Shown here in pieces: positions 16,687 through 47,544 of a stretch of 64,000 bases of DNA (position 1 is the first letter of the stretch; the number at the start of each line of letters is the position of its first letter). The stretch is from Chloroflexota bacterium (lineage in GTDB: Bacteria > Chloroflexota > Dehalococcoidia > UBA2247 > RBG-13-53-26). The translations under genes were made by a program, and so were the position numbers. Below the pieces are notes generated by a model that worked only from the letters and a program-made list of their open reading frames with translations, had not been told where the DNA came from and ran no database searches. The DNA lies in assembly GCA_003551705.1 (NCBI GenBank), contig PUNJ01000020.1, forward strand, positions 17,128 to 81,127. The letters are read 5' to 3'.

Positions 16687-16688
16687 CG

Positions 16689-17891: not shown

Positions 17892-17907
17892 TCAAGGTAA
17901 GGAGGCA

Positions 17908-20391: not shown

Positions 20392-20573
20392 AAAGACTCC
20401 TTCCGGATTTGCGCGCGCAGCATCTGGGGAACCATGCAGGGATAGGCGGCGTACAGGCTTTTGCAACACCTCACAACTATTTGTTATTATAGTAAACGTT
20501 CACGCACCCTTTCAAATCTGCGTGGCAAACTGTCAGCCTTGAGTCCGGTGATCCAACATAGCTAGGAGGAAGT

Positions 20574-22175: not shown

Positions 22176-22190
22176 AGAAGGAGTAATCGC

Positions 22191-22601: not shown

Positions 22602-22653
22602 CCCTTGGGCAATAAGTAGGTCCAGAGTTTGGTAACTCTCAAGGAGCGTGAAT

Positions 22654-24249: not shown

Positions 24250-24264
24250 AAAGGGGTGAAATTC

Positions 24265-24764: not shown

Positions 24765-25083
24765 GTAGTTGCCTTGGATGGCCTAGGGTCAGTGAGGAAA
24801 ACGCTTAGTGCCGATTACGCCTAAAGAACAAAGCCGCATTGTGGGCGTCGCCCACAGCAATAGATGGCGATCTGAGATCGCAGACCGAACCAACCGGGCA
24901 GATTCCCTAGACCAGCACCATACGGTTTGCCCATTATCCACATCATCTCTTACTCCGTTGTCGCGATTGATGCCTGGCATCAATTCAACGGTGCATTTAG
25001 CAATGCGATTACACCTTTCTTGATGAGGGCCTTTCCATAGGTCCAAGATTGATCCCGACAGCCAAGTGAAGGAGGGAATTACG

Positions 25084-25548
25084 ATGAGTATCAAGGATCC
25101 AGCAGGGTTAGCCCAATATCTTCGAAGCGGCAAGCGAGTGCTGATCATGACCGGAGCGCTCTGTGATGAAATCAATTTCGATGGCAAGAGCCTGTTGGAC
25201 TATGCTGCCGACATTGCCAAGAGGACCAAAGCTCCAGTAGCTGCCACAGGCAATACGGTCAACGGCCTCCGAGAGCGAGGCGTGGAGACACACAAGTCCT
25301 GGGCGGCTGAGATCGTAAATTTCATGAAATATGATTGGCACAACCCGCTCATGGCTGACAAACCCGAGGTGCTGCTTTTGATAGGATATAGCCCGACTAT
25401 GGCAGCGAACTTAGCCTCTTCCGTAAAGGATGCGGAAACCGTCGCCTTGGGCGGCAGCTACATCGAGGAAGCCACGTATTCTCTTCCCAGTGTCAAGTCT
25501 TTCTCTGAGTGGCAGCAAGAGTTAACGGAGTTAGTCAAGGCACTATAG
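25084..25548 (+). CDS. CdhB-like protein (epsilon subunit of archaeal-type CO dehydrogenase/acetyl-CoA synthase)
   Basis: 154 aa. Rossmann-like pattern KRVLIMTG...APVAATGN...EVLLLIGY and a C-terminal ELVKAL, resembling ACDS epsilon subunits. Start at ATG after GAAGGAGGG. Confidence 0.5.
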   Translation: MSIKDPAGLAQYLRSGKRVLIMTGALCDEINFDGKSLLDYAADIAKRTKAPVAATGNTVNGLRERGVETHKSWAAEIVNFMKYDWHNPLMADKPEVLLLIGYSPTMAANLASSVKDAETVALGGSYIEEATYSLPSVKSFSEWQQELTELVKAL

Positions 25549-25554: not shown

Positions 25555-26124
25555 ATGGATAACAAGTCCGAGACGCAGAAGAGCAGGATCAGCGAAGGTG
25601 AATTCCGCCATTACGTTTTCGAGCGGCAGGAATTGCTGGATGAAACGCGACGCTTTCTGGAACAGGCGGGATATGAATGGAAGCCTGTAGACCATGTGGG
25701 ATTTGTCCAGCCCGATTTCCGAACCAAGCGTAAGGCAGAAGGGCGCCGTTTCGAAATAGCAGGCCTGCTCCGGGAGAGCATGGATGAAGCCGTTGAGGCA
25801 CTCATCAAGCTATCTGCGATACGAGCTGTAAATGCAAACATCGATTGCGTGCTGGTTCTGCCGCCCATAAATGAGTATGTGCTCATCGAATTCCTCATGG
25901 ATGAACGAGGGCGCTGGTACTTCGGGATGAAAGATGCCAAGATATCGATGTGGTTTGTCAATCCGGATAACAGGACCACAATGTGTGTCATTGGCGGTCC
26001 AAGCGATAGAGAATTCTTAAAACACTTCTTCATGAGCCAGGCCAATTTCGATGAGTACATGTCCATGCGCGCACTACACCTCATCCAAGAAAGACTTATG
26101 GCTGAGGAAGAAGAGGACGACTAG
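25555..26124 (+). CDS. hypothetical protein (no recognisable motif; acidic C-terminus)
   Basis: 189-aa ORF in operon context between the cdhB-like and SDR genes. Confidence 0.5.
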   Translation: MDNKSETQKSRISEGEFRHYVFERQELLDETRRFLEQAGYEWKPVDHVGFVQPDFRTKRKAEGRRFEIAGLLRESMDEAVEALIKLSAIRAVNANIDCVLVLPPINEYVLIEFLMDERGRWYFGMKDAKISMWFVNPDNRTTMCVIGGPSDREFLKHFFMSQANFDEYMSMRALHLIQERLMAEEEEDD

Positions 26125-26177
26125 TTTGAGGGGGGACCCAATTAATCTTACCCTCACAAATAACAAGGAGGTAAGTG

Positions 26178-27077: not shown

Positions 27078-27276
27078 TAAGGAAGGTAAATAACCAAATA
27101 CGCTGTACAGCTCCCTGGTCAGAGGTTGACCATTCTACCGAGGAGGTAGAATAATGGTTTAGTTTTACCAGGTCACTCACGCCGGAGACGTGAGCCTGGC
27201 CCGATCAAGGTGAATCAGGGCATGTGACCTAGTGGCCAGCAGTGAAGAAGAGGAGCATATCTTAAAGGAGGTCAAT

Positions 27277-28641
27277 GTGAGCGTCGGAGAAGATCCAGAA
27301 AAGAATGTTCCGCCCGGAAGAGAATTTCAATTGCCCACAGACCCCGATTATCTCTGGGACGGGTTAAAGGACATAGGACTGGGCATAAGATGGGTAGCCG
27401 AAGTTAAGAAGGCCGACATGCAAATCGAGCTTTCCGGACCCAAGTGGGAGTACAAGAGCTACACCATCATGGAAGTGATTGAAGAGCCTGGCATAGTAAG
27501 GGACGGCATAGTAACACTGGTTGGTCCCGATCTGCACGAGGTGGAACCCGGTACTTCGGTGCCCTCTGCCTGGGACATCAAGGTCTACGGCCCTGGCATC
27601 GGCCAGCGGCATCGCGAGTATCTGGAACGGCAAATGGCCATGGCTCTGCACGGAATTGAGGGATACATGGCCTTTGGTTCTTTCCAGGCACCCTGGATGA
27701 GGATCAGCAAGGCTGTGGCGGGGCGGCTTACGTTCGCCAAGCTGTGCCAGATAATCCATGCTTATATCAAGACCGTGGTCCCTCAAGTGGAAGCCATGGA
27801 GTTCCGCTGGATAATCGGCGCCCCCGAAATCGGCGGCCTCGACCTGATAGAGCCGTTATATCGCAGGGGTATTCAAAGGTTGAAGGCCCAGGAACAGTCG
27901 GTTGCCCTTGAAGACGAAGACGTCGACCTGTTCTACGGGTGTACAATCTGCAAATCACTGGCCCCCAACCACGTATGTGCCATTACCCCCAGCCAGATAC
28001 CCTACTGCGGCATTCTGTCCTACAACGGCGCCCAGGTTACGGTCGAGCTGGACCCCGAGGGCTACATATTCCCGATGCCAAAGGGCGAGTGCAAGAACTT
28101 CCTTCAGGGCAGCTACTCCGGCGTTGATGCAGCAGTGTATGAAAGATCAAACCATCAGGTAAAGAGGGTTAATATCTTCAGCGCTATCAGGTACCCCACC
28201 ACCAACTGCGGATGCTTTGAGGGCGCTGCATTCTATATACCTGAAGTAGACGGTCTCGGCGTTGCCATCCGTCGCTATATCGGTGTGACACCTCTCGGCA
28301 TAAAGTTCTCCCGTTTGGCAGGTACCATATCAGGCGGCTCGCAGAACCATGGCTACAAAGGCGTGTCGATGCGCTCAATGCAAAGCAAGACTTTCCTCAA
28401 GGGAGACGGGGGCTGGAACAGAATCGTCTGGATGCCCGCTGACCTGAAAGAAGAAGTAGCCGAATACATTCCCGAAGAGATCTACGACAAAATAGCCACC
28501 GAGCAGGACACCATCGACCCGGTCGAACTCAAGGAGTTCCTGAAGAAGAAAGGTCACCCCGTAGTTGAGAAATTCTGGAAAAATGGTGAACCTCAATCGT
28601 TGAATGTACCTCTCCCAGGAGGGGAGTGGGCCGACGAATAA
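27277..28641 (+). CDS. cdhC: acetyl-CoA synthase (A-cluster) subunit, archaeal CdhC type; copy 1
   Basis: A-cluster ligand pattern C-x2-C-x8-C-x9-C followed exactly 67 residues later by the Ni-binding C-G-C (TNCGCFEG). About 455 aa, as in archaeal beta subunits lacking the bacterial AcsB N-domain. GTG start 5 nt after AAAGGAGG. Confidence 0.8.
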   Translation: MSVGEDPEKNVPPGREFQLPTDPDYLWDGLKDIGLGIRWVAEVKKADMQIELSGPKWEYKSYTIMEVIEEPGIVRDGIVTLVGPDLHEVEPGTSVPSAWDIKVYGPGIGQRHREYLERQMAMALHGIEGYMAFGSFQAPWMRISKAVAGRLTFAKLCQIIHAYIKTVVPQVEAMEFRWIIGAPEIGGLDLIEPLYRRGIQRLKAQEQSVALEDEDVDLFYGCTICKSLAPNHVCAITPSQIPYCGILSYNGAQVTVELDPEGYIFPMPKGECKNFLQGSYSGVDAAVYERSNHQVKRVNIFSAIRYPTTNCGCFEGAAFYIPEVDGLGVAIRRYIGVTPLGIKFSRLAGTISGGSQNHGYKGVSMRSMQSKTFLKGDGGWNRIVWMPADLKEEVAEYIPEEIYDKIATEQDTIDPVELKEFLKKKGHPVVEKFWKNGEPQSLNVPLPGGEWADE

Positions 28642-28656
28642 ATTGGGAGGTCGAAA

Positions 28657-28872
28657 ATGGGAGATAACCTTTGCGGAGTATGTCAGAAGAAGGAAACAGA
28701 AGCTACATGCAAAGTCTGCGGCGTGGCACTGTGCGCTGAATGTGTCCGTGAAGTCAGCGTAGAAAATCCAGGCCAACGGGTGCTTGGTGTGCTGACCAGT
28801 CCTCTCAAGTCAGGCACGAAGAAACAGAAGGTCTGTGCGACCTGTATGAAGGAAGTCGATTTCGTCGATTAG
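28657..28872 (+). CDS. 4xCxxC zinc-ribbon miniprotein; copy 1
   Basis: 71 aa with CxxC pairs at residues 6/9, 18/21, 26/29, 60/63. GGGAGG SD. Conserved paralogue at 32907..33128 in the same relative position. Confidence 0.65.
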   Translation: MGDNLCGVCQKKETEATCKVCGVALCAECVREVSVENPGQRVLGVLTSPLKSGTKKQKVCATCMKEVDFVD

Positions 28873-28955
28873 GTGCTTCCGCTTGCTGCTGAAAGACTTC
28901 CGTTCGTATGCGTTAACGCTTGGGCTAAGTATCGATAAGTCGGAGGATAAGAGCT

Positions 28956-31445
28956 GTGAAAGATAATAACAGAATTGCTCACGTCGGGTCCCTGGAAGTC
29001 AACATAGGCGACGTAGTTCGCGACCCCAGGGGGCACGAAGACGAAATCGTTGAAATACTGGAGAACGATTTTGTTGAAGGTCGACATAGCAACTTCGGTG
29101 GATGGATTACCCTCCTGCCGGATGCCATTGATCTGGCGGAACTCGATTATTCATACCTTAACAAATACCCGCCTCTCTATTCAGAGAGCGAGAGCACTTG
29201 CCGGGACTGCAGTCTGGGAGATTGCGATCTTAGCCAGCGTGCGGGAAAATGCGGACTCAGCGCCGAATCCTTCCAGGGGAGACTGAGCCTGCGAAAGGCC
29301 TGCCGCGGTTGCATGACTCAAATTACTGCAACCCGTCAGTTGCTTAATTACGCCCTCAAACGCTGGCCGGAGGATACCCCAGTCTCCATGGGCGAGATCC
29401 TTAGCATATCCGATAGTGCCCCAGCTATCACCGTTCTCTCCGGCATCTTGATCAAGACCATAAAGGACCTCAACAGGGCCCAGTCCTATGCGGAGCAGCA
29501 GCTAGCCAGGCTGTTCCAGGCCAGTTTCAACGGGACCGGCACGGCGGTTGAATTCGAGAGCATGGTCTTGCACACCGGCTCGGTACTATTGCTGACCATG
29601 GGCGTAGCAGAGATGCTGAAGATCTCCTGCTACGGATTCATCAGTGCAGCAAACGAGGAGTTGGAAGTCATCGACCAGTTCCCAGCCCCCAGCGTGAAAG
29701 GCGGATGGGCTTCCGTCGACAACAGCAAACCGTCGATTGCATTCGAAGGAGATGACTTTCTTCCCGCCTGGTGCGCACTGGACTACATGAAACAGCAAGA
29801 CCTGCTCGGTCAGATAGAGATCTGCGGCCTGGGCTCAGCCGGCGATGACATCGCCAGGTTCCATGACCAGTGCCGCGTTCTGGGTCCAGCCGTGAGAGCC
29901 ACCAAGGCCATCCGAAACGGTGTATTCAACGTAGTCGTCCTCAGCCCGGGCTGTACTCCGCAAGATCTGCTCGGTGAGGTCGAGCGAGCCGGCAGCAAGG
30001 CCATATGGGTTGGCAGCAACGGCATCGGCAATTTGCGCGACAGAACGGACGAGACCGTCGATAGCATAGTTGCCGCGCTGGCTGCCGGAGAGAAGGCCGT
30101 CTGGGTCCGCGATGTGGAAAAGGCAGGCGAGGTGGCTGTCAAGGCTGCACAGACCATCGCCAAATCCAAGTCCAGCCTGACGTCCGAAGATGACGCTGTC
30201 AAGGCTGCCGCAAGCCACGACAAGAACTGTGACCTCTGTACCCTGGTCTGTCCTCTTAATCTTCCTGTTGCCAAGGCCGTAAAGGGACTGGAAACAGGCG
30301 ATTGGACAGCGATGCTTGAAGTGGAGAAAGCGTGCAACTTCTGCGGCAAGTGTGAAGATGCGTGCCCCAGCAAGTTGGAATTACGTGACATCATTGTCGC
30401 CGCCGAAAGAAGACAGGCTGACAAAGACAAATTCGTTATGCGACCGGGTCGCGGTCCAATTTCGATCACCGAATTGCTGCAGTCAGCGTTTGCCGTGGGT
30501 TGGGGCAGCATTCCAGCCATGGTTACCCTATTCGGGTGCGGTGACGCTCCGCAGGAAGAGATAGCCTGGATGGCTGATGAATTGTTGAAAGGTGGATGCA
30601 TGGTCTTCACTGCAGGGTGTGGCGCCTCCGATATAGCGCACTCCTACAGCGAAATGAAGAAGAAATACGTATTCGAGGAATACGCAGCCACCTGCGCAGC
30701 CAGAAACCTGGTGAACTGCGGCAGTTGCTCGGCCATGTGTCATGCACTGCCCATGTACCTGATGTTGAGGCCCTCCGGAGGGATTCCGCTGTACGGCGGA
30801 ATTCCACCCCTGGGTGATTCCATCAATCTTGGCGGCGCCCAGTCATTAATAATATGGGGCTCCATGTCCGACCGCATGTACGCCATGGCAGCGGCCTGGG
30901 CACGACTCGGTTCCACCGTTATCGTGGGTCCCTCATCATCGCTCAAGTGGCCTCGCTCCCTGGTGGGCAACAGGTATGATCGCAGCCGCTGGTGGGTACA
31001 TCACGGTGAGACGGCAAAGAAGCGCGAAACTGAGCCCGTCCCCGAACACCTCATCATGCCGGTTGAGACAAAAGAGGAAGCGCTGACCATGCTGGCGCGG
31101 TCGGTCCTGACCGTGAAGGACTATCGTGAAAGCCGCGCCACGCACCTGGAAGTCTTGATTGATTACTATGACCGCTTCTATAATGAGTTGCCGGCTGACT
31201 GGCCGTTGCTGGTAAGGTCTGACTTCGAACTGCCACCCCGCTACAGAAGATACATGGTCAGATTGCTGGGCGAGGAATATGGTTGGGAAACCGAAGGAAT
31301 GCGGATCAAGCAGGCCAAGCACCGGGACGGCAAGCTCATGACACTGTCAGAGTTTGCGGCCAATTACGGCATGGAGCAAGGCATCTACAGTACCCGGCTG
31401 AAGAGCCAGTTGCCCCTACGCCTCAGAGACAAGGTAGAGGAATAG
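28956..31445 (+). CDS. cdhA: CO dehydrogenase catalytic subunit-like protein, archaeal CdhA type with ferredoxin-like insertion; copy 1
   Basis: 829 aa. N-terminal CxxCxxxxC...C Fe-S motif. Inserted 2x[4Fe-4S] ferredoxin segment (NCDLCTLVCP / CNFCGKCEDACP) as in archaeal alpha subunits. C-terminal Cys cluster (GCG..., NCGSC). Sits in a cdhC/cooC context. Confidence 0.6.
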   Translation: MKDNNRIAHVGSLEVNIGDVVRDPRGHEDEIVEILENDFVEGRHSNFGGWITLLPDAIDLAELDYSYLNKYPPLYSESESTCRDCSLGDCDLSQRAGKCGLSAESFQGRLSLRKACRGCMTQITATRQLLNYALKRWPEDTPVSMGEILSISDSAPAITVLSGILIKTIKDLNRAQSYAEQQLARLFQASFNGTGTAVEFESMVLHTGSVLLLTMGVAEMLKISCYGFISAANEELEVIDQFPAPSVKGGWASVDNSKPSIAFEGDDFLPAWCALDYMKQQDLLGQIEICGLGSAGDDIARFHDQCRVLGPAVRATKAIRNGVFNVVVLSPGCTPQDLLGEVERAGSKAIWVGSNGIGNLRDRTDETVDSIVAALAAGEKAVWVRDVEKAGEVAVKAAQTIAKSKSSLTSEDDAVKAAASHDKNCDLCTLVCPLNLPVAKAVKGLETGDWTAMLEVEKACNFCGKCEDACPSKLELRDIIVAAERRQADKDKFVMRPGRGPISITELLQSAFAVGWGSIPAMVTLFGCGDAPQEEIAWMADELLKGGCMVFTAGCGASDIAHSYSEMKKKYVFEEYAATCAARNLVNCGSCSAMCHALPMYLMLRPSGGIPLYGGIPPLGDSINLGGAQSLIIWGSMSDRMYAMAAAWARLGSTVIVGPSSSLKWPRSLVGNRYDRSRWWVHHGETAKKRETEPVPEHLIMPVETKEEALTMLARSVLTVKDYRESRATHLEVLIDYYDRFYNELPADWPLLVRSDFELPPRYRRYMVRLLGEEYGWETEGMRIKQAKHRDGKLMTLSEFAANYGMEQGIYSTRLKSQLPLRLRDKVEE

Positions 31446-31517: not shown

Positions 31518-32885
31518 ATGGCTGTACCTGAAGAAGAAGCAGTCTCTAAATTGCCGGCCGGAAGGATCTTTCAGTTACCCACAGATCTGGACCATCTCTG
31601 GGACGGCCTGGACGACATAGGCCTGGGACTGCGATGGCTCAGCGAGGTCAAGAAAGCCGATATGCACCTTGAGTTGGGGGGGCCCAAATGGGACTACAAG
31701 ATGTTCTCCGTCTTCTACATTGAAGAGGATCCTGAGAAGGTCCCGGATGGCCAGGTCAAGCTCATAGGGCCGGATATCCCAGAAGTCAAGCCGGGAACTT
31801 CCTTGCCGGGGGGATTCACCATCAGGATCTACGGCAAAGAACTTACACAAGCCCATCAGGGTTATGTTTCACGCCAGATTGGCACCGCCCTTCAGGGTCT
31901 TGAAGGTTTCATGCTCTTCGGCTCACCTGACAGTCTCTGGATAAGGATAAACAAAGACGTGGCCGACAGGCTCACCTTTGCAAAGATATCGCAATTTTGT
32001 TATGCGACTGCCAAGACCCTGGTACCTCAAGTTGACGCCGTGTCCTTCTTCTGGGTAATAGGAGATCCGGAGGTAGGCGGTGTAGAGATGGTCAACCCCG
32101 TTTTCGAATGGGCTTCCGAGAAGTTTAAAGTCATCAGTGCCAAGGAACTGTACGACGACGAAGATGTAGACATGTTCTACGGCTGCACCATCTGCAAGTC
32201 ACTGGCGCCTAACCACGCATGCGTGCTGACACCCAGCGCCCTGCCTTACTGCGGTATCATCGGCTATGACTCTGCCAAGGTAACAGCCGAAATGGACCCC
32301 GAGGGCTACGTATTCCCCATCCCCAAAGGCGAATGTCTCGACCCAGAAGCTGGTCACTATACCGGCGTGGACGAGGCTATCTGGGAGAAATGCAATCATT
32401 TGGTGAACCGCGTCCACATCTACAGCAGTATCAAGTACCCGACCACGAATTGCGGGTGCTTCGAAGCCGCTTCCTTCTATATTCCTGACGTGGACGGCAT
32501 CGGTCTCGCCATGAGACGTTATACGAAAATGACCCCGCTTGGCATCAAATTCTCAACCCTGGCTGGCACCATTTCCGGGGGTGCCCAGAACCATGGGTTC
32601 AAGGGGCTTTCCATAGCAGGTATGTCCAGCCCGAACTTTCTCAGAGGAGATGGTGGCTGGAACCGGGTTGTCTGGATGCCGTCCGACCTCAAGGAGGAAA
32701 TAGCGGATGTCATACCTGAGGAGCTTTACGACAAGTTAGTCACGGATGAAGAGACTGTGGATGCCGCTGAGCTCAAGCAATTACTTATTGAACGCGGACA
32801 CCCTATAACGGAGGTGTTCTGGAAGAACGGGGAACCGCAACCGTTGCAGATACCTCTTCCAGGCGAGGACTGGCCCGAGGAATAA
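31518..32885 (+). CDS. cdhC: acetyl-CoA synthase (A-cluster) subunit, CdhC type; copy 2
   Basis: Same C-x2-C-x8-C-x9-C ... CGC (TNCGCFEA) arrangement. Paralogue of 27277..28641. GGGGG SD. Confidence 0.8.
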   Translation: MAVPEEEAVSKLPAGRIFQLPTDLDHLWDGLDDIGLGLRWLSEVKKADMHLELGGPKWDYKMFSVFYIEEDPEKVPDGQVKLIGPDIPEVKPGTSLPGGFTIRIYGKELTQAHQGYVSRQIGTALQGLEGFMLFGSPDSLWIRINKDVADRLTFAKISQFCYATAKTLVPQVDAVSFFWVIGDPEVGGVEMVNPVFEWASEKFKVISAKELYDDEDVDMFYGCTICKSLAPNHACVLTPSALPYCGIIGYDSAKVTAEMDPEGYVFPIPKGECLDPEAGHYTGVDEAIWEKCNHLVNRVHIYSSIKYPTTNCGCFEAASFYIPDVDGIGLAMRRYTKMTPLGIKFSTLAGTISGGAQNHGFKGLSIAGMSSPNFLRGDGGWNRVVWMPSDLKEEIADVIPEELYDKLVTDEETVDAAELKQLLIERGHPITEVFWKNGEPQPLQIPLPGEDWPEE

Positions 32886-32906
32886 TTCCTGATCGGGGGT
32901 TGAATC

Positions 32907-33128
32907 ATGTCGGAGAATCTTTGTGGAGTTTGCCAGAAGATGGCCGCTCAATGGACCTGCCAGGAGTGCAAAGTGGCACTATGCGAGCAGTGTGTAAAGG
33001 AAGTGCGCATAGAGTCCACCAGACCAGGTCAGAGGATGATGGGAAGGGTTACGAGCCCCATGAAGTCAGGGGTGAAGAAGATCAAGGTCTGTGACAAGTG
33101 CTTCAGGGAAAAGGAGTTTCTGGGATAG
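32907..33128 (+). CDS. 4xCxxC zinc-ribbon miniprotein; copy 2
   Basis: 73 aa. Cys positions conserved with the 28657..28872 miniprotein. Confidence 0.65.
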   Translation: MSENLCGVCQKMAAQWTCQECKVALCEQCVKEVRIESTRPGQRMMGRVTSPMKSGVKKIKVCDKCFREKEFLG

Positions 33129-33141: not shown

Positions 33142-35628
33142 ATGATGGATGATAACAAGTATGCTCAAGTCGGCCCTCATCGGGTTGACATTGGTGAGGT
33201 AGTCCGCGACCCACGCGGTATTGAGGATATCGTCAAAGAAATCCTTGAAAAGGACTTCGTTGAGAGTCGCTACGCTCAGTTTGGAGCCCACCTTAATATT
33301 CTGCCTGACGCTGCTGACATTGCCGACTGGGACCATACACTCCTGTCCAGGTATGAACCACTGTATATGCTTTCGGCGCATATTTGCAGGGATTGCACTT
33401 CAGGTCCCTGTAACCTGAATAGTGCCAGCGGGGTGTGCGGACTGGAAGGAGATGTCCTCAAGGCAAAGCTAAGCCTCCGAAAGGCTTGTCGCGGCTGCCT
33501 GGTGCAGATGATCACCAGCCGTGATATTGTCAACTACTCACTGAAGATCTTTGGTCAGGACCACCCCTGCAGCATGGGCGAGTTGCTCACCATGTCCGAT
33601 CACTGCCCGCCCATAGGCACACTCAGCGGTATTCATGTTAAGTCGCTTAACGACTTGGACCGTGTGCTCGCCTATGCCGAATCACAGTTGAGCAAGCTCT
33701 TCCAGGCAAGCTTCACCGGCACGGGAACGGTCAACGATTTCGAGAGCATGGTCATGCACGCCGGCTCCGTCCTGCTGCTGGCCATGGGCGTGGCAGAAAT
33801 GGCCAAGGTCTCTTGTTTCGGGTTTGTTTCAGCCGCCAACCACCAGATAGACCAGCTCGACAACTTTCCGCCCGCCACCTCCGCCGTGGGATGGGCCGCT
33901 ATTGAAAAGGACAAACCCGTGGTGGCCTTCGTCGGCGACAGCTTCCTTCCGGCATGGACCGCAATCCAGCATATGCGGGAAAATGAACAGGTAGAAGCAA
34001 TTGAGGTATGCGGAGTAGGACCGGCAGCGGACGATATAATCAGATTTTATGACAAAGGCAGGGTTATCGGTCCCATGACCCGAGCGGCCCGTGCCATACG
34101 GAACGGTGTCTTTAACGTGGTAGTAGCCGGACCGGGCTGCATACCGCAAGACCTGTTCACAGAATCCGAGCGGGCCAACAGCAAGTTCATCTGGACCGGC
34201 CCCAATGGCGTAAGCAAACTCAAGGACAGAACTGACGACTCCGTCGACAAGATGGTAGCTGACTTGCTAAAGGGAGAGTCGGGAATCTGGATCAGGGATG
34301 TTGAGAAAGCCGGTCAAGTCGCCGTTAGGCTGGCAGGTTCGCTTGGTCCCAACAAGAGTGTATTCGCTCTGGACGACCAAGATGCGGCAAGGCTTGCCTC
34401 GAAGTGCTCTGAGAAGTGCGACCTGTGTTTTTACGCCTGCCCCAACAGCTTGCAGGTCCCCAAAGCTGTAAGAGGGATTGCCGGAGGAGATTGGGCAACC
34501 ATGGCCGGGTTGGAGAAGGGTTGTTATTTCTGTGGCAAGTGCGAGGAAGCCTGTCCTGAAAACGTCCAGGTCCGCGATCTTGTGGTCGCCGCTGAAAGGA
34601 AGAAGGCAGAACAAGACAACTCCGTGATGAGAGCAGGCAGAGGACCCCTCCCCCTGACTGAGATCCTCCAGTCCGCCTTCTCCATGGTCTGGGGCAATGC
34701 ACCCGGCATCGTGGTCCTGGCAGGTTGCGGCGACGCCGATCGCGATGAAATCGGCTGGTTGGCCCACGAATTGACCCGTCGCAACTGCATTGTCTTTCTG
34801 GCCGGATGCGGCGCTGCCGAAATCGCCCGCAATTACCAGGACAAGAAGGGCAAGCATATATTCGAGCTCTACACATCCTCCATTGAGCCGAGATCCCTAA
34901 TTAACTGCGGTGGATGCGCAGCGATTTCCCTGGCCAACAACATGTACATGTACGCCAGGGCTGCTGGAGGAATACCGCTATATGGTGGTATCCCAGAGGT
35001 AGGCGAGGGCTCTTTGTACACCACCTTCTCACTCTTGTTATGGGGTTCTCTGCCGGAGAGAATGCATGCTGTTGCAGCAGGCTACGCCAGACTGGGCGTC
35101 AGGGTGGTGATGGGCCCCAACTCGGGCTGGAACTGGGGCAGATATCTGCCAGGTAACCGCTACGATAGAAGCAAATGGTTCGTGTACCACGGCGATGACG
35201 GCCGCAAGCGAGAGACCGAGCCCATACCTGAGCATCTTATTATCCCTGTCGAGACCAAGGAAGAGGCCCTGACCATGATCCCGAGGACGTTCTTCAGCAC
35301 ATCGGAGATGCGGGAGGGCCGCGCCGCCCGCTTGGACTTCTTCTTCGAACTCTACAGGTTGTTCTATGGCGAGCTGCCCGAGGACTGGCAGCTCTTTATA
35401 CGCTCCCATCTTGATATACCGACCAGGCACAGGATCCGCTTGATCAAGCTGCTTGACGAGGAGTTCGGCTGGGAAGGGGCTGGCATAAAACTCAATAAGG
35501 CCAGGAACAGGGACGGCAAGTTGCTGACGCTTTCGGAATTCAATACCAGCTACGGTATGGAGCTGGGCCGGTACCACTGCCGTTTGGAGAGACTGCTGCC
35601 CAAACACCTGCGCAAGAAGGACGGGTAA
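33142..35628 (+). CDS. cdhA: CO dehydrogenase catalytic subunit-like protein, CdhA type; copy 2
   Basis: Paralogue of 28956..31445 with the same N-terminal Cys motif, ferredoxin-like insertion (KCDLCFYACP / CYFCGKCEEACP) and C-terminal Cys cluster. Start at ATG just after GAGGAGG. Confidence 0.6.
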   Translation: MMDDNKYAQVGPHRVDIGEVVRDPRGIEDIVKEILEKDFVESRYAQFGAHLNILPDAADIADWDHTLLSRYEPLYMLSAHICRDCTSGPCNLNSASGVCGLEGDVLKAKLSLRKACRGCLVQMITSRDIVNYSLKIFGQDHPCSMGELLTMSDHCPPIGTLSGIHVKSLNDLDRVLAYAESQLSKLFQASFTGTGTVNDFESMVMHAGSVLLLAMGVAEMAKVSCFGFVSAANHQIDQLDNFPPATSAVGWAAIEKDKPVVAFVGDSFLPAWTAIQHMRENEQVEAIEVCGVGPAADDIIRFYDKGRVIGPMTRAARAIRNGVFNVVVAGPGCIPQDLFTESERANSKFIWTGPNGVSKLKDRTDDSVDKMVADLLKGESGIWIRDVEKAGQVAVRLAGSLGPNKSVFALDDQDAARLASKCSEKCDLCFYACPNSLQVPKAVRGIAGGDWATMAGLEKGCYFCGKCEEACPENVQVRDLVVAAERKKAEQDNSVMRAGRGPLPLTEILQSAFSMVWGNAPGIVVLAGCGDADRDEIGWLAHELTRRNCIVFLAGCGAAEIARNYQDKKGKHIFELYTSSIEPRSLINCGGCAAISLANNMYMYARAAGGIPLYGGIPEVGEGSLYTTFSLLLWGSLPERMHAVAAGYARLGVRVVMGPNSGWNWGRYLPGNRYDRSKWFVYHGDDGRKRETEPIPEHLIIPVETKEEALTMIPRTFFSTSEMREGRAARLDFFFELYRLFYGELPEDWQLFIRSHLDIPTRHRIRLIKLLDEEFGWEGAGIKLNKARNRDGKLLTLSEFNTSYGMELGRYHCRLERLLPKHLRKKDG

Positions 35629-35631: not shown

Positions 35632-36126
35632 CTAGTCGTCGTCATCTCGAGGTTCAGCCTTGACGAGATCAAGTGCCTCGAAGGGACACCTGTCGGCACA
35701 GACGCCGCAGAGATCCAGACTCTTGTCCGACCGCTTGCAACTTGGGGCATTGATTACGTGCAGGCTGCCGTTGATGACCTGGAGCACCTCAGGTACCGTT
35801 TCCCGCTTGGAGAGCCGGCCTCCTATAGTGACCGTTGTCAACGCCCTGCCGCATGCCAGCACACAGTCCCCACAGCCTGTACACCTTGTCCGGTCTATGA
35901 CATGATCAGTGCCCGGTATCCTCTCGCCCTCTCCCAGAAACCCCTTCAAGGTCTTCAAGGCATCGGCTTGTTCCGGCTCCTGAAGAGGAGGACAATCATT
36001 CAATGTCCGGTCCCGGCTGATGAGATCGAAGGCAAAGGAATAGCAGGTTGGGCAGCCGCATAGCTTGCAATTGGTCCGCGGCAGGAAGCGGTAGATGTGA
36101 AGCGGTTGGACTTCTTTCCTACTCAT
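35632..36126 (-). CDS. poly-Fe-S protein (N-terminal CxxxCxCxxC plus 2x[4Fe-4S] ferredoxin domain)
   Basis: Motifs CTGCGDCVLACG and CGVCADRCP. Start set at the ATG that overlaps the upstream stop (ATGA coupling) with a G-rich SD. Last gene of the minus-strand operon. Confidence 0.55.
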   Translation of the reverse strand: MSRKEVQPLHIYRFLPRTNCKLCGCPTCYSFAFDLISRDRTLNDCPPLQEPEQADALKTLKGFLGEGERIPGTDHVIDRTRCTGCGDCVLACGRALTTVTIGGRLSKRETVPEVLQVINGSLHVINAPSCKRSDKSLDLCGVCADRCPFEALDLVKAEPRDDDD

Positions 36127-36517
36127 GATCCGCCCCAGGCAGGATTTCGTTAAGGGGAGTCGGTGCTTTCGTCGACACTGCTGCAACGACGCCTATTAAG
36201 CTCAGACCGGCCGCAGTCATGTGCTCCACGTCCGCCAACAGGTAACCCGTGTAAAGGCTGGCCGGCATGACACCTGTGCCTGCCTCAATCGTCTTCTCTC
36301 CTCTTGCTTCAACAACGATATGGGAAACCTCGCTTCGCAACGAAATTGCTCCCCCATCGGCTAAGCCCATCTTCTTCATGTCTGCCGGCGATAATCTGAC
36401 AATGGCAGCCAGTTTCTGGTACGCATCACCCCAGCCATGCTTCTGCCTGGCAATATCTAAGTGGATGTCGCTATAAGTGAGTATCGTCAAGGGCAGTCCG
36501 TCCATTTCCGGGGTCAT
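36119..36517 (-). CDS. FwdD/molybdopterin-dinucleotide-binding-domain-like small subunit
   Basis: 132 aa, size and position typical of FwdD-type C-terminal molybdopterin-binding domains split from FwdB. GGAGGG SD. Stop/start overlaps on both sides. Confidence 0.4.
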   Translation of the reverse strand: MTPEMDGLPLTILTYSDIHLDIARQKHGWGDAYQKLAAIVRLSPADMKKMGLADGGAISLRSEVSHIVVEARGEKTIEAGTGVMPASLYTGYLLADVEHMTAAGLSLIGVVAAVSTKAPTPLNEILPGADHE

Positions 36518-37743
36518 CCCAGTCCCTCCAGAAGTCGCTGCAACACCACGGTCTCGGCTGGATACGGTCCTGCGCTGAAGCGTGTTAGGTCTGCCTTCTC
36601 GCCGTCCATACGCAGTACCGCGCCCTCGCTTTCGAGGCCGGCTACAGCAGTAGTAATCCGAATAGCCGCTCGCTCAGAGGTAAGAGTAGTGAAACTATCT
36701 ACGCAGATTATGTCCGCTTGTGAGAGCCTGGACATCAACGCCTGCGGAAATACCGCATAGGGGTCAGAGCCCACACACAGAAGGACGTCGGGAACAGCCC
36801 CTTTCACCTGCTCAGTGAAAGAGCACTCAGGTCCATGACGAACGGTTCCAGCAAAACTCACACTCCCCACAGAGCCGGTCTCCTCAAACAGCTCCCTCCC
36901 CAGGCCCATCAAATTCGGTTCCGATAACATGGGTATCACCGCAACCTTGGCCCCCTCGACAGAATTGGCCTTTGCCACCATCTCGCAAAAGACGTTGGTG
37001 TCTCCTCCCAGTGAGCGGCCCAAACCGTCACCGCAGAAAACCACAGCAAATCCCGCCTTCATGAGCAGTTCCCGGAACTGCCGGGCCTCCGGTAAGTCAT
37101 CGCCACGCTCGAGCACAGCCTCCAGAAAGGCCAGGTCGCCACCGGGCTTTAGCTTGAACTTCGGCCGGCACAGGGAGGTGAACTCGCTCTCCCGGATATC
37201 CACACTGCTGAGGACGACGTTCTTCGGTTGCCACCCTGAGGGATCGTAATCGCTGTAGCAATAATACGTGAATTTGGAAAGATGCCGCGGATGGGTGTGG
37301 GCCGGATTTGACCCCCAGTACACCAGCAGACCGGCGCTATCCTTTATGTCAAGCAGAGAACAGGAAGGGAGATTCTTCTCAAGGATGGACTTCAAAATCT
37401 CTCCAAGTCCCAGCGAGAGGCTGCTGTCCAATACGGCTCCCAACCGGCGGGCTATTTCGATGGCGGTCTTCTGTGCCTCGATGGTGGAACTCCCAAGACC
37501 GTAGATAAGCGGATTCCTTGCGTATCTAAGCAGGTGTGTTGCTTCCGTTACGGCTTCCTCCAGGGAAACGTCCCGCTCTCCCACACGCGTGCGGCCCCTG
37601 CGTGCGGGGTCTCGGCTCGAGGCAAAGAGGGCAGCTCCCCTGGCACAGATATTCTCTATAAGCTTGAGAGTACTCCCGGCCTCTATCCGGATATCATCGC
37701 AGAAACAACTGCAACCGCTGCACGTCAAGGTTATCTTGGACAT
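36514..37743 (-). CDS. FwdB-like molybdopterin oxidoreductase subunit (formylmethanofuran dehydrogenase subunit B family)
   Basis: 409 aa. N-terminal CSGCSCFCDD, i.e. the CxxCxxxCDD Fe-S motif characteristic of FwdB/FmdB. Molybdopterin-oxidoreductase-like remainder. Confidence 0.55.
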   Translation of the reverse strand: MSKITLTCSGCSCFCDDIRIEAGSTLKLIENICARGAALFASSRDPARRGRTRVGERDVSLEEAVTEATHLLRYARNPLIYGLGSSTIEAQKTAIEIARRLGAVLDSSLSLGLGEILKSILEKNLPSCSLLDIKDSAGLLVYWGSNPAHTHPRHLSKFTYYCYSDYDPSGWQPKNVVLSSVDIRESEFTSLCRPKFKLKPGGDLAFLEAVLERGDDLPEARQFRELLMKAGFAVVFCGDGLGRSLGGDTNVFCEMVAKANSVEGAKVAVIPMLSEPNLMGLGRELFEETGSVGSVSFAGTVRHGPECSFTEQVKGAVPDVLLCVGSDPYAVFPQALMSRLSQADIICVDSFTTLTSERAAIRITTAVAGLESEGAVLRMDGEKADLTRFSAGPYPAETVVLQRLLEGLG

Positions 37744-37749
37744 ATTCGT

Positions 37750-39975
37750 CTAGTAGGAAGAGCGGGCCATGGCAGCCTCTTCCAGGATGGCTGTCGGCAA
37801 CTCCTCTGCACCAATCAGGTAAATCCTGCCCTTGCCAACTCCGGCTATACGGCGCATCAGTTCAGGGTCGGCGGAGCGCTGGTTGATGCAGATGCAGGAT
37901 ATGGTGATGCCTCTACGGGCTATCAGCGCCGCCTGTCTGAGCGCATATCTTTGAGGCGATGGATGCGGCGCTGTCGCGTCACCGTCCGATATCAGGATGA
38001 TATGCTGCTTGGCCCTGCCTTTCGGGTGACGTGCCAGGAGATCGCCTGCTTTGAGCAAGCCGTAGCCGATATTCGTAAAGGCATTTTCATGCAAGTCCAG
38101 GTCAAGCACGAGCCGGCTGACGCGATGCGGGCTGGCTGTAAGATCGACCACGATGTCAGCCAGATTTGAGAAGGAGATCACAGCTACACGGTCCTTATAG
38201 GCAGTCGCCGCCAGAGACAAGGCTATAGCGCTTTCCTTAGCAAACCAGAACTTCTCCAACTGGAGCATGGTCCCGGAGAGGTCAAGCACCAGGACGATGT
38301 CCATCCTGGTCCGAATATCCTTTATGTTAACCAGGATATCCTCCCTGGTTATCTCCTGTCTGCGATTACGCATGGCTTCTCTGAGGGTATCACGGAAGGA
38401 GATGTCGCGGTACTTATCGCCGAAGCGGAAGCGCCGCGTCCCAACCACTTTGCCCTCGCCCAGGTTGAGCTTCTTGCCCGCGCCGTGCCTGCCGTAACTA
38501 TAGAGGTAGGCACCTTCCTCCAACCGGGGAGTGAGTTTCTCAAGAAGAAAATTGATACCCCGCTGGCTCAGCATCCAGCCGCTGCTGGTCCTCTCCAAGA
38601 TGTCCTCTTCCTCCAGAAACTCCAGGGTCTTGGACAGGGCCGTCTTCTCCAGGTACTCGCGAATGCGCTCTTTTTCCTTCCTGAACTCCTCCACTTCCAT
38701 AAGTAGTTCGCTGTCAAGGTTGTCCAGCTTGAAGCGCTCCGGATACAGCTCGGGCAGGCGCTCGGATATTTGCTGGTATAGCATGGCCAGTTTGGTGTCG
38801 GGAAAGCGCTTGATTCGCTTCAGAAGCAGATCAAAGGCACCATACTTGAGCGGCTTGCGGAACTTGTCTTCCCGGACTATCTCTTCAACCAGTGAAATAA
38901 CATCGTCCTTGGTAAGCGAGGCTACCTCCACTTTGCCGCCATCAAGACCGGTGACCATGGCAACTATTCCTTCGATAATGCTCTGTCTCTTCCCAGGCAA
39001 GTCGACCTCTGGGGCCAGTTTCAGTCGATGAGGCAGAGACACGACGGCTGCATCCCCGAGCATGCGGTTTTCGTCCTCCAGGCCCAGATGAGGAAGATGT
39101 GCCAGGAGTTCCGCATAACGGACCATGCCCCTGGTACCCACCCCTCGCTCCACTTCAGCATGCCGCCTCGTCTCATTCACGATTGCCACCGCCTTGCCGG
39201 TCAGTGAAGAGTCCAGTGTCAGGCCCGCCTCGGCAATCCGGGACGAGACAATCTTACACTGCTGCTCAGCGTCATCCACATAGCCAAGCCTCATCACGTC
39301 GAAGCTGTCAGTAAGGTCCAGCGGCAACGACTTCAGCGCAGATTCACTGCCCGTAGCAACGACCAGAATATCCAAGTCGATCCGCTGGTCCAGCACACCA
39401 ATGGTCAGGGAGCCGCCCTGGACGGCATACATTACGGCATTGAGGACCCTTTCGGGAATCCTGTCAATGAAATCAATGATCAGGATGCCCCGGTTGGCTT
39501 TGAGCAATTTCCCCGGCAAGAAGGCCATGGTGGAGTGCAACCCCTCACGCAGGGCTACACCAGGGTCCACATCGCCTATCAGGTCTTCTACCATGAGGCC
39601 GGCGCTTCCCTGCACATTGACGATCCTGTCGGCGGCGCAGCGGACGGCACTCTCAAGGACTTCACCGCGGTCCCTTCTCTCCAGGCACCACGGACAAGTG
39701 GGGGCTTCAGGATCACAGTTCATAGGACAACCCTTCACTACCTGTATGTCCGACAAAATGCAGGAAAGATTATTGGCCAGGCTGGTCTTGCCGCTGCCCG
39801 GTGCACCCAGGATCAGCAAATGATGGCTGCTGTAAATGCTGCTGAGCAGCGCCTGTTTCTGGGGTTCTTCCAGCCACAGACCCTGGAATACGTCTTGAGT
39901 CTTATCCGGCTTGTCTCGCAAAGTTGCCAGAATCTCTTCTCGGAGCACAATTCTAGGTTCCTTCGGCGTGTTCAA
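37750..39975 (-). CDS. ChlD-like AAA+ ATPase fused to a C-terminal von Willebrand A (MIDAS) domain, with Cys4 insertion
   Basis: Walker A GAPGSGKTS. ChlI/BchI-family collinearity (KANRGILIIDFIDR...VVATGSES). Cys4 insert CPMNCDPEAPTCPWC. C-terminal vWA DLSGTM...ISDG. The annotated start is TTG; a GTG at 39948 with an AAGGAA SD is an alternative. Confidence 0.7.
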   Translation of the reverse strand: MNTPKEPRIVLREEILATLRDKPDKTQDVFQGLWLEEPQKQALLSSIYSSHHLLILGAPGSGKTSLANNLSCILSDIQVVKGCPMNCDPEAPTCPWCLERRDRGEVLESAVRCAADRIVNVQGSAGLMVEDLIGDVDPGVALREGLHSTMAFLPGKLLKANRGILIIDFIDRIPERVLNAVMYAVQGGSLTIGVLDQRIDLDILVVATGSESALKSLPLDLTDSFDVMRLGYVDDAEQQCKIVSSRIAEAGLTLDSSLTGKAVAIVNETRRHAEVERGVGTRGMVRYAELLAHLPHLGLEDENRMLGDAAVVSLPHRLKLAPEVDLPGKRQSIIEGIVAMVTGLDGGKVEVASLTKDDVISLVEEIVREDKFRKPLKYGAFDLLLKRIKRFPDTKLAMLYQQISERLPELYPERFKLDNLDSELLMEVEEFRKEKERIREYLEKTALSKTLEFLEEEDILERTSSGWMLSQRGINFLLEKLTPRLEEGAYLYSYGRHGAGKKLNLGEGKVVGTRRFRFGDKYRDISFRDTLREAMRNRRQEITREDILVNIKDIRTRMDIVLVLDLSGTMLQLEKFWFAKESAIALSLAATAYKDRVAVISFSNLADIVVDLTASPHRVSRLVLDLDLHENAFTNIGYGLLKAGDLLARHPKGRAKQHIILISDGDATAPHPSPQRYALRQAALIARRGITISCICINQRSADPELMRRIAGVGKGRIYLIGAEELPTAILEEAAMARSSY

Positions 39976-40717
39976 TCAGCAGTTTGCACAGTTCGTCGAC
40001 AGCCACCACTGCAGGGGAGTCTTCGGGCACCCCGGTAACAGGCTTGCCCTCGATGTCCAGAAGCGCCACGGCAGGATCGAAGGGAATGAAGACAGCGATT
40101 TCAAGGCCGTTCTCACTGGCCATTTGCCCTGCTCCTGCTTTGACCTCCGAAGTCACACGGTTCATGACTGGAATAATGGCGCCGAACTCCACGGATAGCT
40201 CCTCAGCAAGCTCCTGTATCCTCTTGGCAGTCAATATCCCGTTCTTGGTCGGGTCCGCGACCACTATCATCACATCCACATCCCGCGTGGTGCGTCTGCT
40301 CAGATGCTCGAGTCCGCCGTGACAGTCTATGACGGTGAAGTCGTAGCCTTGCGACCTGCTGTCGATTACCTGTCTGATCACATGATTCACGGCACAATAG
40401 CAGCCCTCGCCCTCGGGACGGCCCATGATGATGACATCGAAATCGGGGAACTCGTGGACCGACTCATGGATGGACAGCTTGAGGTATTCCTCTTTGGCAG
40501 CCGCCACCTTGCTGCGGGCGGGAGCGTTGATTATATCTTCGCGGGCCTGGCCCACGTTCTTGTCCACGCTCACACCGAGGGCTTCGGGCAGGTTGGAATC
40601 AGGGTCGGCGTCTATGGCCAGCACCGTCCCCTGTTTTGCCAGCCTCTTGATAAGCATGCTGGACAGGAAGGTCTTGCCTACCCCACCCTTTCCGGAAATG
40701 GCGATCGCAATACCCAT
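39953..40717 (-). CDS. cooC: CooC/AcsF-family Ni-insertion ATPase (MinD/ParA fold)
   Basis: Deviant Walker A GKGGVGKT. Metal-binding CxC (EGCYCAV) characteristic of CooC. 254 aa. GAGGAG SD. Confidence 0.8.
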   Translation of the reverse strand: MGIAIAISGKGGVGKTFLSSMLIKRLAKQGTVLAIDADPDSNLPEALGVSVDKNVGQAREDIINAPARSKVAAAKEEYLKLSIHESVHEFPDFDVIIMGRPEGEGCYCAVNHVIRQVIDSRSQGYDFTVIDCHGGLEHLSRRTTRDVDVMIVVADPTKNGILTAKRIQELAEELSVEFGAIIPVMNRVTSEVKAGAGQMASENGLEIAVFIPFDPAVALLDIEGKPVTGVPEDSPAVVAVDELCKLLIEHAEGT

Positions 40718-40719
40718 AA

Positions 40720-41751
40720 CTACTCCTCAAGTACGTTGGATACAAGCTCTTCAATGAGTTTGAATGGATCGTCGTAGAATTTCGATTCAGGCGATGGTTT
40801 GATACGGCTACCAAGAGACGATGATGCAACTTTTCTAACGTCGGCTACGCTGGCCTCCAGCCTGTTCTCCAGTCTGGCCATGGCCTGGACCTTTTCGTAG
40901 AGGGACAGGGCAGCCCTGACACTGGCGGGCTGGTCCATTTCCTTTCTCCAAGGGTCCTCTCTGGTACTCCGGACCAGGGTCACTACCGAGTCCAAGACTT
41001 TATCGCTTACCTGAACACCATCTATCTTGAGGCCGTGCTTCAAAATGATGGACTTCTCCATGTCGGTGGTCTCCGGATAGCCCATCTTGACCACGTCAAA
41101 GCGGTCCAGCAGTACATCAGAAAGCTCTTCGACGCCGGCCCGCTCTCTGGGGTTCATGGTGGCTATCATCATGAAGCCGGCGGGATAGTCCACGTCGTAC
41201 GGGCCTATGGTGGCGATGCCTTCTTCCAGCACTTGAAGCAGAGCATTCTGAAGCTTTTCAGTTACCCTGTTAAGTTCGTCGAAGAAGACTATGCCCCTGT
41301 TACCCTTCAGCAGCTTTCCGGGAAGGAATACCCGGTAGTCCTGGGGTCCATACTTGAAGGCCTGGGTGGGATCTATGTCGCCGAGCAGGTCTTCAGCCGT
41401 GAGGTCGGGGGAACCCTGCAAGCGCACGAAACGCTGCTCCCCCGAGATGGTAGCCGGTGTCAGTTCCTCACCGGCCGCCGCTTTGGCCTTGCAGCGAGGG
41501 CAGACCGGCGACTGTGGATCGCAATGATAGGGGCAGTCAGCCACAACCGTTATCGGCGGCATAGCAGCAGCTATGTGTTTAGCCATGGTCGTCTTGCCGA
41601 CGCCGGGAGGGCCTTCGATGAGAGTATGGTGGCCGGCGAGCAACGAAGCCAGGATCTTGTCCTTGGCATCCTTCTGGCCGACAATGACATCCAGCATGTC
41701 ACCGCCCTCAGCAGCATACTTCAGGATCGTGTCTTTGAGTCCCTCGATCAT
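40720..41751 (-). CDS. ChlI/BchI-like AAA+ ATPase with Cys4 zinc-ribbon insertion
   Basis: Walker A GPPGVGKTT. ChlI-family collinearity (KGNRGIVFFDELNR, MIATMNP, LLDRFD). Insert CPYHCDPQSPVCPRC. GGAGGG SD. Confidence 0.75.
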   Translation of the reverse strand: MIEGLKDTILKYAAEGGDMLDVIVGQKDAKDKILASLLAGHHTLIEGPPGVGKTTMAKHIAAAMPPITVVADCPYHCDPQSPVCPRCKAKAAAGEELTPATISGEQRFVRLQGSPDLTAEDLLGDIDPTQAFKYGPQDYRVFLPGKLLKGNRGIVFFDELNRVTEKLQNALLQVLEEGIATIGPYDVDYPAGFMMIATMNPRERAGVEELSDVLLDRFDVVKMGYPETTDMEKSIILKHGLKIDGVQVSDKVLDSVVTLVRSTREDPWRKEMDQPASVRAALSLYEKVQAMARLENRLEASVADVRKVASSSLGSRIKPSPESKFYDDPFKLIEELVSNVLEE

Positions 41752-47514: not shown

Positions 47515-47544
47515 CAGTCTAGCCGGAGAACCCCCATCTCCGGG

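Follow-up and report, generated by a model that had tools for sequence, protein, structure and literature searches.

A conserved eight-cysteine miniprotein paired with divergent CdhA-like proteins is a candidate structural or adaptor subunit of a non-canonical ACDS-like complex

The CdhA-like genes of a Dehalococcoidia genome are preceded by genes for a small cysteine-rich protein that may be a subunit of a non-canonical acetyl-CoA decarbonylase/synthase (ACDS)-like complex. The first of these, mini1 (28657..28872, + strand), encodes a 71-amino acid miniprotein and lies in a 64,000-nucleotide stretch of Chloroflexota bacterium contig PUNJ01000020.1 (positions 17,128 to 81,127; hereafter the window). 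It stands between a gene for a CdhC-like protein, the beta subunit of acetyl-CoA synthase (ACS), and a gene for a divergent CdhA-like protein, the alpha subunit of carbon monoxide dehydrogenase (CODH). A paralogue, mini2 (32907..33128, + strand), encodes a 73-amino acid protein and occupies the same slot in the second of two duplicated modules, as the first-pass annotation had noticed. Judged from sequence comparison, we see about an even chance that the miniprotein belongs to such a complex as a stoichiometric subunit with a structural or adaptor role. This reading is favoured because the miniprotein gene adjoins the CdhA-like gene, is fused to its N-terminus in some genomes, is paired with it paralogue by paralogue, is retained next to partners that have lost their clusters and is predicted to encode a zinc-finger fold of the interaction type.

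mini1 and mini2 are protein-coding genes under strong purifying selection. Both open reading frames (ORFs) are as first described, with four CxxC pairs and the shared start MxxNLCGVCQK (MGDNLC in mini1, MSENLC in mini2), and pairwise alignment of their products gives 56% identity. The cysteines of mini1 are found at positions 6/9, 18/21, 26/29 and 60/63; those of mini2 are at 6/9, 18/21, 26/29 and 62/65, the last pair being shifted by a two-amino acid loop insertion. The knuckles of the miniprotein read CGVC, CKVC, CAEC and CATC. Each gene had also been credited with its own strong Shine-Dalgarno sequence, which is correct for mini1, where GGGAGG (28645..28650, + strand, read from the sequence) is located 6 nt 5' of the ATG, and incorrect for mini2, where the 5' region contains only a G-run (GGGGG at 32895-32899). 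Across loci in metagenome-assembled genomes (MAGs), mini1 orthologues are 75-83% identical, a level similar to that of the flanking enzymes, and mini2 orthologues are 70-82% identical. Nei-Gojobori counts yield pN/pS values of 0.156 for mini1 (12 sequences) and 0.174 for mini2 (11 sequences), with synonymous sites near saturation (pS of ca. 0.71). Because orthologues recur in 19 loci, pN/pS is low and the cysteines are conserved family-wide, mini1 and mini2 are not chance ORFs.

The miniprotein family is small and its invariant association is with the CdhA-like gene, through 5' adjacency or N-terminal fusion. A profile search of 5.8 billion proteins identified 38 clusters, all of 71-74 amino acids, that split into mini1-type and mini2-type groups, and an exhaustive hidden Markov model (HMM) search of 1.84 billion representatives returned only 46 matches. 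These include about 30 proteins of 69-87 amino acids matched over their full length, some long multi-repeat proteins matched only at profile positions 2-35 (the B-box-like half) and three CdhA-like proteins carrying the miniprotein as an N-terminal domain (P0055, 910 amino acids; P0068, 911 amino acids; and the fragment P0062). A genome scan located 19 loci in Dehalococcoidia/Chloroflexota MAGs, where the gene order is CdhC-like, mini, CdhA-like wherever the locus is long enough and where the pairing is fixed, mini1-type with CdhA1-type and mini2-type with CdhA2-type. The slot between CdhC-like and CdhA-like genes therefore describes both window modules and the Dehalococcoidia. It does not describe other lineages, in which the order is VWA-mini-CdhA-CdhB-CdhC (a VWA gene is found 5' of mini in loci L003, L023 and L036-L040) or, in a Candidatus (Ca.) Syntropharchaeia archaeon (L029), mini-CdhA-CdhB-CdhC, and a general rule that mini is always between CdhC and CdhA was rejected on these grounds. 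A separate mini gene directly 5' of the CdhA-like gene is present in L003, L025, L027, L028 (a Thermodesulfobacteriota MAG), L029, L030 and L036-L039. Taken over 39 loci spanning Dehalococcoidia, Desulfobacterota-type MAGs and the Ca. Syntropharchaeia archaeon, mini is directly 5' of, or fused to, a CdhA-like gene in 35, whatever the remaining gene order, a linkage count that is biased since the loci were gathered via the miniprotein itself. Close linkage of homologues to cdh genes, which the first-pass annotation had proposed to check, is seen in these 35 loci.

The fusions provide a second form of this linkage. P0055 and P0068 align collinearly from end to end and share the neighborhood MoxR, CooC-like, VWA, fused mini~CdhA, CdhB-like, CdhC-like and a homologue of a 189-amino acid protein also found in the window. 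Because the two are only 39% identical, come from independent samples and assemblies and have the same neighborhood, we take the fusion to be old and long maintained. Such a long-kept fusion implies 1:1 co-function of miniprotein and CdhA-like protein.

Sequence profiles and structural models point to a binuclear cross-braced treble-clef finger whose first three pairs are spaced as in a B-box and whose fourth pair is distal, as in FYVE and RIM fingers. An alignment of 32 family members has a mean column identity of 31%; seven of the eight cysteines are invariant in it, and the sixth ligand (C29) is Cys in 30 sequences, His in one and Asp in one. Such a replacement of a ligand by His or Asp is what one expects at Zn sites. 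The spacing of pairs one to three is exactly that of a B-box (C6-x2-C9-x8-C18-x2-C21-x4-C26-x2-C29), and the fourth pair, CxxC at 60/63, follows about 30 residues further on, where a B-box has H-x2-8-H close by. Matches to the B-box family PF00643 score 21.9 bits (mini1) and 21.4 bits (mini2) against a gathering threshold of 24.1, the ANCHR-like B-box family PF22586 scores 26.2 bits with mini2 against 27, and the FYVE family PF01363 scores 20.6 bits with mini1 and 16.8 bits with mini2 against 27.8, none of them reaching threshold. Searched against the PDB, the family profile matches the B-boxes of MID1, CONSTANS and TRIM28 at E-values of about 3e-4; for a FYVE domain the E-value is 0.02. AlphaFold2 (AF2) modeling yields small beta elements, with strands at approximately 31-36 and 54-59; the last CxxC marks the beginning of a helix (61-66). 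Two AF2 models were compared with known structures. For both, the best match is the RIM zinc finger (2cjs and 2a20; probability 0.97-0.99, TM 0.5-0.64), and the FYVE domain 2yw8 is matched as well (TM 0.5-0.6). The FYVE motifs that bind phosphatidylinositol 3-phosphate (PI3P), WxxD, R(R/K)HHCR and RVC, are absent from mini1 and mini2, and an NCBIfam scan of both proteins returned no match. By analogy with the binuclear cross-braced treble-clef finger class (PMC4506424), the miniprotein would bind zinc with its ligand pairs combined as 1+3 and 2+4.

The miniprotein had initially been called a zinc ribbon, a label that we rejected. The only zinc-ribbon family matched was DZR_2, over residues 54-70 and below threshold (E-value 0.0064, 16.7 versus 27 bits), and zinc-ribbon ribosomal proteins appeared in the fold search with probabilities of at most 0.6. 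Family scans and fold matches instead give fingers of the B-box/FYVE/RIM type.

The CdhA-like partners are divergent in their cluster ligands. In the window they are encoded at 28956..31445 (copy 1, + strand; 442.7 bits with TIGR00314 versus a cutoff of 781.3) and 33142..35628 (copy 2, + strand; 478.2 bits versus the same cutoff). Eighteen miniprotein-associated CdhA-like proteins were aligned to canonical CdhA (8riu_A). All 18 retain the C-cluster His, and all 18 have lost C-cluster Cys1, the motif GICCT being changed to G-x-G-[SPAN]-x (GLGSAG and GVGPAA in the two window proteins). GHN is likewise replaced by GD(D/N/S)F and the D-cluster Cys is absent throughout the set. The fused CdhA-like proteins are devoid of the entire N-terminal B/D motif. 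The archaeal-type partners in L029 (4969-7122; the Ca. Syntropharchaeia archaeon) and L030 (3876-6086; a metagenome contig) additionally lack Cys2-5 and the E/F ferredoxin insert, an insert that most partners still possess. Judged by the TIGR00314 cutoff together with a complete C-cluster (His and five Cys), the partners fall outside the CdhA equivalog. They share an N-terminal segment of about 50 residues (V/L-D-x5-R/K-D-x-R-G...D-F/W-x-E-x-R) that phmmer does not align to canonical CdhA. MAFFT placed a second N-terminal element, a Cys motif of the unfused CdhA-like proteins (C-x2-C-x4-C...C...C-x2-C; window 29196-29315) that is absent from the fused ones, on miniprotein pairs 2-4, an overlay that is probably a cysteine-driven artefact.

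The CdhC-like proteins encoded at 27232..28641 (copy 1, + strand; 358.1 bits with TIGR00316 versus a cutoff of 355.95, aligned to 9c0s_E) and 31518..32885 (copy 2, + strand; 359.1 bits versus the same cutoff) are 58% identical to each other. Their A-cluster motifs, CxxCx8Cx9C and CGC, are complete, as they are in seven relatives from six loci, and together with the scores above cutoff this places the window proteins within the CdhC/ACS beta equivalog. The CdhA-like protein next to this intact ACS looks like a 'pseudo-CODH' scaffold.

In L029 and L030 the ligands of the B, C, E and F clusters are lost, yet the miniprotein retains all eight Cys, and its role cannot therefore depend on feeding electrons to those clusters. 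This bears on a second explanation, a redox centre in which a rubredoxin-like Fe(Cys)4 site or a small Fe-S cluster would serve as electron entry or exit in place of the missing D-cluster. Four CxxC pairs and strictly anaerobic hosts would suit such a centre, as would the loss of D-cluster Cys from all 18 partners, which is consistent with groups A-2 to A-6 of Inoue et al. (PMC6344411). We consider it distinctly unlikely nonetheless, given that the closest matches in both sequence and fold are Zn fingers, that two members have His or Asp as their sixth ligand, that the miniprotein persists beside the ligand-less partners and that the E/F ferredoxin insert remains as an electron route in most others. 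A rubredoxin label was rejected, with no match to PF00301 at E-values up to 0.01 and with knuckles that are not of the rubredoxin type (CxxCG/CPxCG with an aromatic core). Of the initial suggestion of a rubredoxin-like electron-transfer or assembly subunit, the electron-transfer part is weakened by the ligand-less partners and the assembly part is still plausible.

The structural or adaptor role that we favour could take the following form. mini1 and mini2 would each fold as a small cross-braced two-zinc finger, every combined set of ligand pairs holding one Zn as expected from B-box/FYVE homology. Each would bind its cognate divergent CdhA-like protein at or near the conserved N-terminal segment. 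Its docking surfaces would be a conserved, poorly modeled loop (PGQRVLGVLTSPLKSG) and the C-terminal tail, which is acidic-hydrophobic (E-x-D-F/V), and it could serve to tether a further component such as the CdhC-like ACS or a Fwd-like/Fe-S module. Physical binding, docking interfaces and adaptor function are what we infer from the genomic and fold comparisons. The canonical ACDS of Methanosarcina offers a useful analogy: its CdhA has an N-terminal region that serves as a tether, crosslinks to the tail of CdhC and is directed towards the supercomplex core, and the C-terminal tail of CdhC is itself a tethering element (PMC13370988). Both window CdhC-like proteins end in a conserved tail, FWKNGEPQxLxxPLPGxxWxxE, encoded directly 5' of mini (28573-28638 and 32817-32882), which is a possible docking peptide by the same analogy.

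Several observations weigh against this role. All Pfam matches of the miniprotein (B-box, ANCHR-like B-box, FYVE, RING and HIT) are sub-threshold, the two AF2 models are of moderate confidence (pLDDT 69.3 and 68.6, a deeper alignment bringing no gain) and the Foldseek E-values of the RIM and FYVE matches are weak (0.03-0.08). Furthermore, four of the 39 loci (L026, L031, L032 and L035) are without cdh context. The homologues concerned are P0075, on a phage-like contig with YopX, ThyA and many small ORFs, P0053, which adjoins a YggU-like gene, P0051, flanked by LigT-like and CAP-domain genes, and P0044, located 3' of a MraY C-terminus. With four homologues in such settings the fold is not intrinsically cdh-specific. 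The earlier idea that the miniprotein is specific to this system stands insofar as a conserved accessory protein accompanies cdh-like genes in 35 loci, and falls short on these four. Lastly, adjacency and fusion to the CdhA-like gene are also compatible with a dedicated maturation factor.

The unlinked homologues, including that of L031 (10001-10213), share a Q-x-V-L-G-V-x-T-S loop and are closer to mini1 than to mini2; the three non-phage ones are on contigs with housekeeping-type genes. Two viral-contig scans, a tblastn search of GenBank phages and a PHROGs scan identified no phage relatives of P0075.

Small prokaryotic zinc-finger proteins often bind nucleic acids, and homologues in unrelated contexts, among them the phage-like contig, would fit a small nucleic-acid-binding regulator of the operon whose linkage to cdh genes reflects autoregulation and not complex membership. 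Such a regulator would hardly be expected to be fused to an enzyme subunit of 830 amino acids, to be present in one copy per duplicated enzyme module and to pair with its enzyme in a paralogue-specific manner. Scans of Pfam and NCBIfam found no helix-turn-helix or known DNA-binding family match either, and we regard this explanation as very improbable.

The neighboring ATPase genes speak for another explanation, a dedicated metallochaperone or maturation factor of the kind of HypA, CooT or CooJ. It would help to insert Ni or Fe-S into the A-cluster of the CdhC-like protein or into the altered site of the CdhA-like protein, together with MoxR, ChlD-like VWA and CooC-like ATPases. HypA has a structural CxxC...CxxC zinc site. 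The conserved gene set does include these three ATPases, mini is directly 3' of the VWA gene in non-Dehalococcoidia lineages and CooT is present in L023. However, mini is duplicated with each CdhA/CdhC module while the ATPases are single-copy, the stable fusion to the CdhA-like N-terminus across deep divergence suggests a permanent subunit, and the miniprotein has neither a His-rich or MHE-type Ni-binding motif nor a chaperone family match in NCBIfam or Pfam. A maturation factor is thus unlikely in our estimate, and the structural or adaptor subunit remains the favoured reading.

The two three-gene modules of the window are paralogous, CdhA-like copies 1 and 2 being 53% identical. The mini genes start 15-21 nt 3' of the CdhC-like genes and end 13-83 nt 5' of the CdhA-like genes. 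The gap between mini1 and CdhA1 is 83 nt in the window (28873-28955) and reaches about 290 nt in L001 (10217-10505), and that between mini2 and CdhA2 is short (13-50 nt). The longest ORF for CdhA-like copy 2 starts at a GTG (33091) and overlaps mini2 by 38 nt; the true start is likely the ATG at 33142 or 33145, because the alignment with copy 1 begins at MMDDNK and GAGGAGG is located just upstream. We found no terminator-like site on the + strand across 24.6-36.3 kb, and an Rfam scan of the window matched no RNA family.

Upstream of the modules, a CdhB (epsilon)-like small subunit (25066..25548, + strand) was recognized by a weak TIGR00315 match (E-value 7e-9); in other lineages (L023, L037-L039) the CdhB-like gene adjoins the CdhA-like gene. 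It is followed by the conserved 189-amino acid protein (25555..26124, + strand), which accompanies the core genes in all lineages, with homologues of 25-35% identity in L023, L038 and L039. Family scans of this protein gave nothing significant, the sole match being DUF6528 below threshold (E-value 0.006), and it is a candidate further subunit.

Downstream, a minus-strand block (35632-41751) travels with the cdh-like genes across lineages. It encodes an Fe-S protein (35632..36186, - strand) with a CdhE/AcsC-type N-terminal [4Fe-4S] domain (PF04060, E-value 3.6e-12; NF003195 on the N-terminal region) and a ferredoxin domain, also kept in L039 and L040, a FwdD-like molybdopterin-binding-domain protein (36119..36517, - strand; family scan) and a protein similar to formylmethanofuran dehydrogenase subunit B (FwdB-like; 36514..37743, - strand; TIGR03129 268.5 bits versus a cutoff of 327.8). 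The block continues with three genes assigned by family scan, all on the - strand: a ChlD-like AAA+/VWA protein (37750..39975), a CooC/MinD-type P-loop ATPase (39953..40717) and a MoxR/ChlI-like AAA+ ATPase (40720..41751). In L040 the block is followed by an amidohydrolase (Pfam Amidohydro_3); FwdA is likewise a member of the amidohydrolase superfamily. The cdh-like gene block contains no corrinoid iron-sulfur protein (CFeSP; CdhD/E) and no methyltransferase gene.

Ahead of the cdh-like genes, 19417-24672 and 26175-27077 encode MeaB, two tandem pairs of acyl-CoA mutase large and B12-binding subunits and a short-chain dehydrogenase/reductase (SDR). This mutase/SDR add-on is kept in Dehalococcoidia loci, with one or two mutase pairs, and is absent from the Desulfobacterota and archaeal versions; outside the Dehalococcoidia an alternative add-on occurs, for example BcrAD/BadFG-type activases, CooT and DsbD_2 in L023. 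The flanks (14628-18933 and 42902-50016) are rich in genes of acyl-CoA metabolism, among them an AMP-binding ligase, a trio of DUF35/ChsH2-type OB protein, thiolase and HMG-CoA-synthase-like protein, an acetyl-CoA hydrolase/transferase-GNAT fusion, two family III CoA-transferases and a DeoC-type aldolase.

A broader proposal, which we put forward only tentatively and regard as rather doubtful, is that the miniprotein marks, and is an obligatory adaptor of, an unrecognized 'ACS-centred' machine that occurs in Dehalococcoidia, Desulfobacterota and Ca. Syntropharchaeia. Its CODH alpha subunit would have degenerated partly or wholly to a scaffold, the A-cluster ACS would be intact, and the CFeSP and methyltransferase would be replaced by Fwd-like B/D(/A) proteins, the Fe-S protein and the 189-amino acid protein, with B12 acyl-CoA mutases and the SDR added in the Dehalococcoidia version. 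If this is true, the complex could carbonylate or decarbonylate acyl-CoA with a non-canonical carbon donor or acceptor. 

CODH/ACS is among the most studied of ancient metalloenzymes and its subunit inventory is considered settled; on the structural or adaptor reading, the miniprotein would be a sixth component, of the zinc-finger type. Its confinement to a clade in which CODH catalytic ligands are lost and ACS is intact suggests an uncharacterized branch of ACS biochemistry, hosted by Dehalococcoidia that are abundant in the subsurface, by bacteria of the sulfate-reducer type and by relatives of archaea that oxidise alkanes. The miniprotein could serve as a convenient genomic marker for the degenerate-CODH/intact-ACS system and would be among few cases of a B-box/FYVE-like binuclear zinc finger recruited to a prokaryotic metabolic enzyme. 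Pfam, NCBIfam, PHROGs, the PDB and the literature open to searching contain no description of the family or of any zinc-finger partner of CODH/ACS. Fold class and enzyme family are each known already; their combination and the system marked by it, ACS-centred with a degenerate CODH and Fwd-like partners, are new.

Known systems each share part of this picture. B-boxes (PF00643, PF22586; class described in PMC4506424) resemble the miniprotein in the spacing of the first three pairs and are small modules stabilized by two metals, as is predicted for the miniprotein. They differ in their fourth pair, a nearby H-x2-8-H in place of a CxxC about 30 residues on that follows a conserved loop, and in their setting, since the miniprotein has a prokaryotic host, is attached to a metalloenzyme and has no TRIM or transcription-factor context. 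FYVE and RIM/rabphilin fingers (PF01363; 2a20, 2cjs, 2yw8) likewise have four CxxC pairs over about 65 residues, the last of which opens a C-terminal helix. The RIM finger, the best structural match of both AF2 models, is a protein-protein adaptor, and FYVE differs by its PI3P-binding motifs and by the sub-threshold score of the miniprotein. HypA, CooT and CooJ are also small and encoded with Ni-enzyme genes, HypA having a CxxC...CxxC zinc site; the miniprotein has no detected homology to them, no Ni-binding N-terminus or His-rich tail and is fused to the enzyme in one clade. Rubredoxin has in common with it a CxxC-knuckle metal site, small size and anaerobic hosts, and is distinguished by one site instead of the two predicted here, the missing signature and family match and the zinc-finger nature of the structural matches.

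Among CODH and ACDS systems, the partner CdhA-like proteins are closest to the clade-A Ni-CODH groups without D-cluster and with incomplete C-clusters that cluster with ACS beta (Inoue et al. 2019, PMC6344411). They resemble groups A-4 and A-6 in the absent D-cluster and an incomplete C-cluster, here with Cys1 and GHN lost. Their signature of a retained His and Cys1 changed to S/P/A/N matches neither group exactly, and that study makes no mention of a zinc-finger miniprotein, of Fwd-like genes or of the archaeal form devoid of all ligands. A known ACDS or CODH/ACS subunit (CdhA-E, AcsA-E) was rejected as an identity for the miniprotein, in agreement with the first-pass annotation, which knew of no such canonical subunit: NCBIfam gave no match, and the 31 PDB sequences to which the family profile was matched include no chain of an ACDS or CODH/ACS entry. 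Zinc is not mentioned in the preprint on ACDS structure (PMC13370988). The closest parallel in kind is CdhB, the epsilon subunit of archaeal CODH, which is similarly small, non-catalytic and encoded beside CdhA, to which it is bound. The miniprotein is related to CdhB neither in sequence nor in fold and would represent a further component, one that accompanies the variant CdhA-like clade alone.

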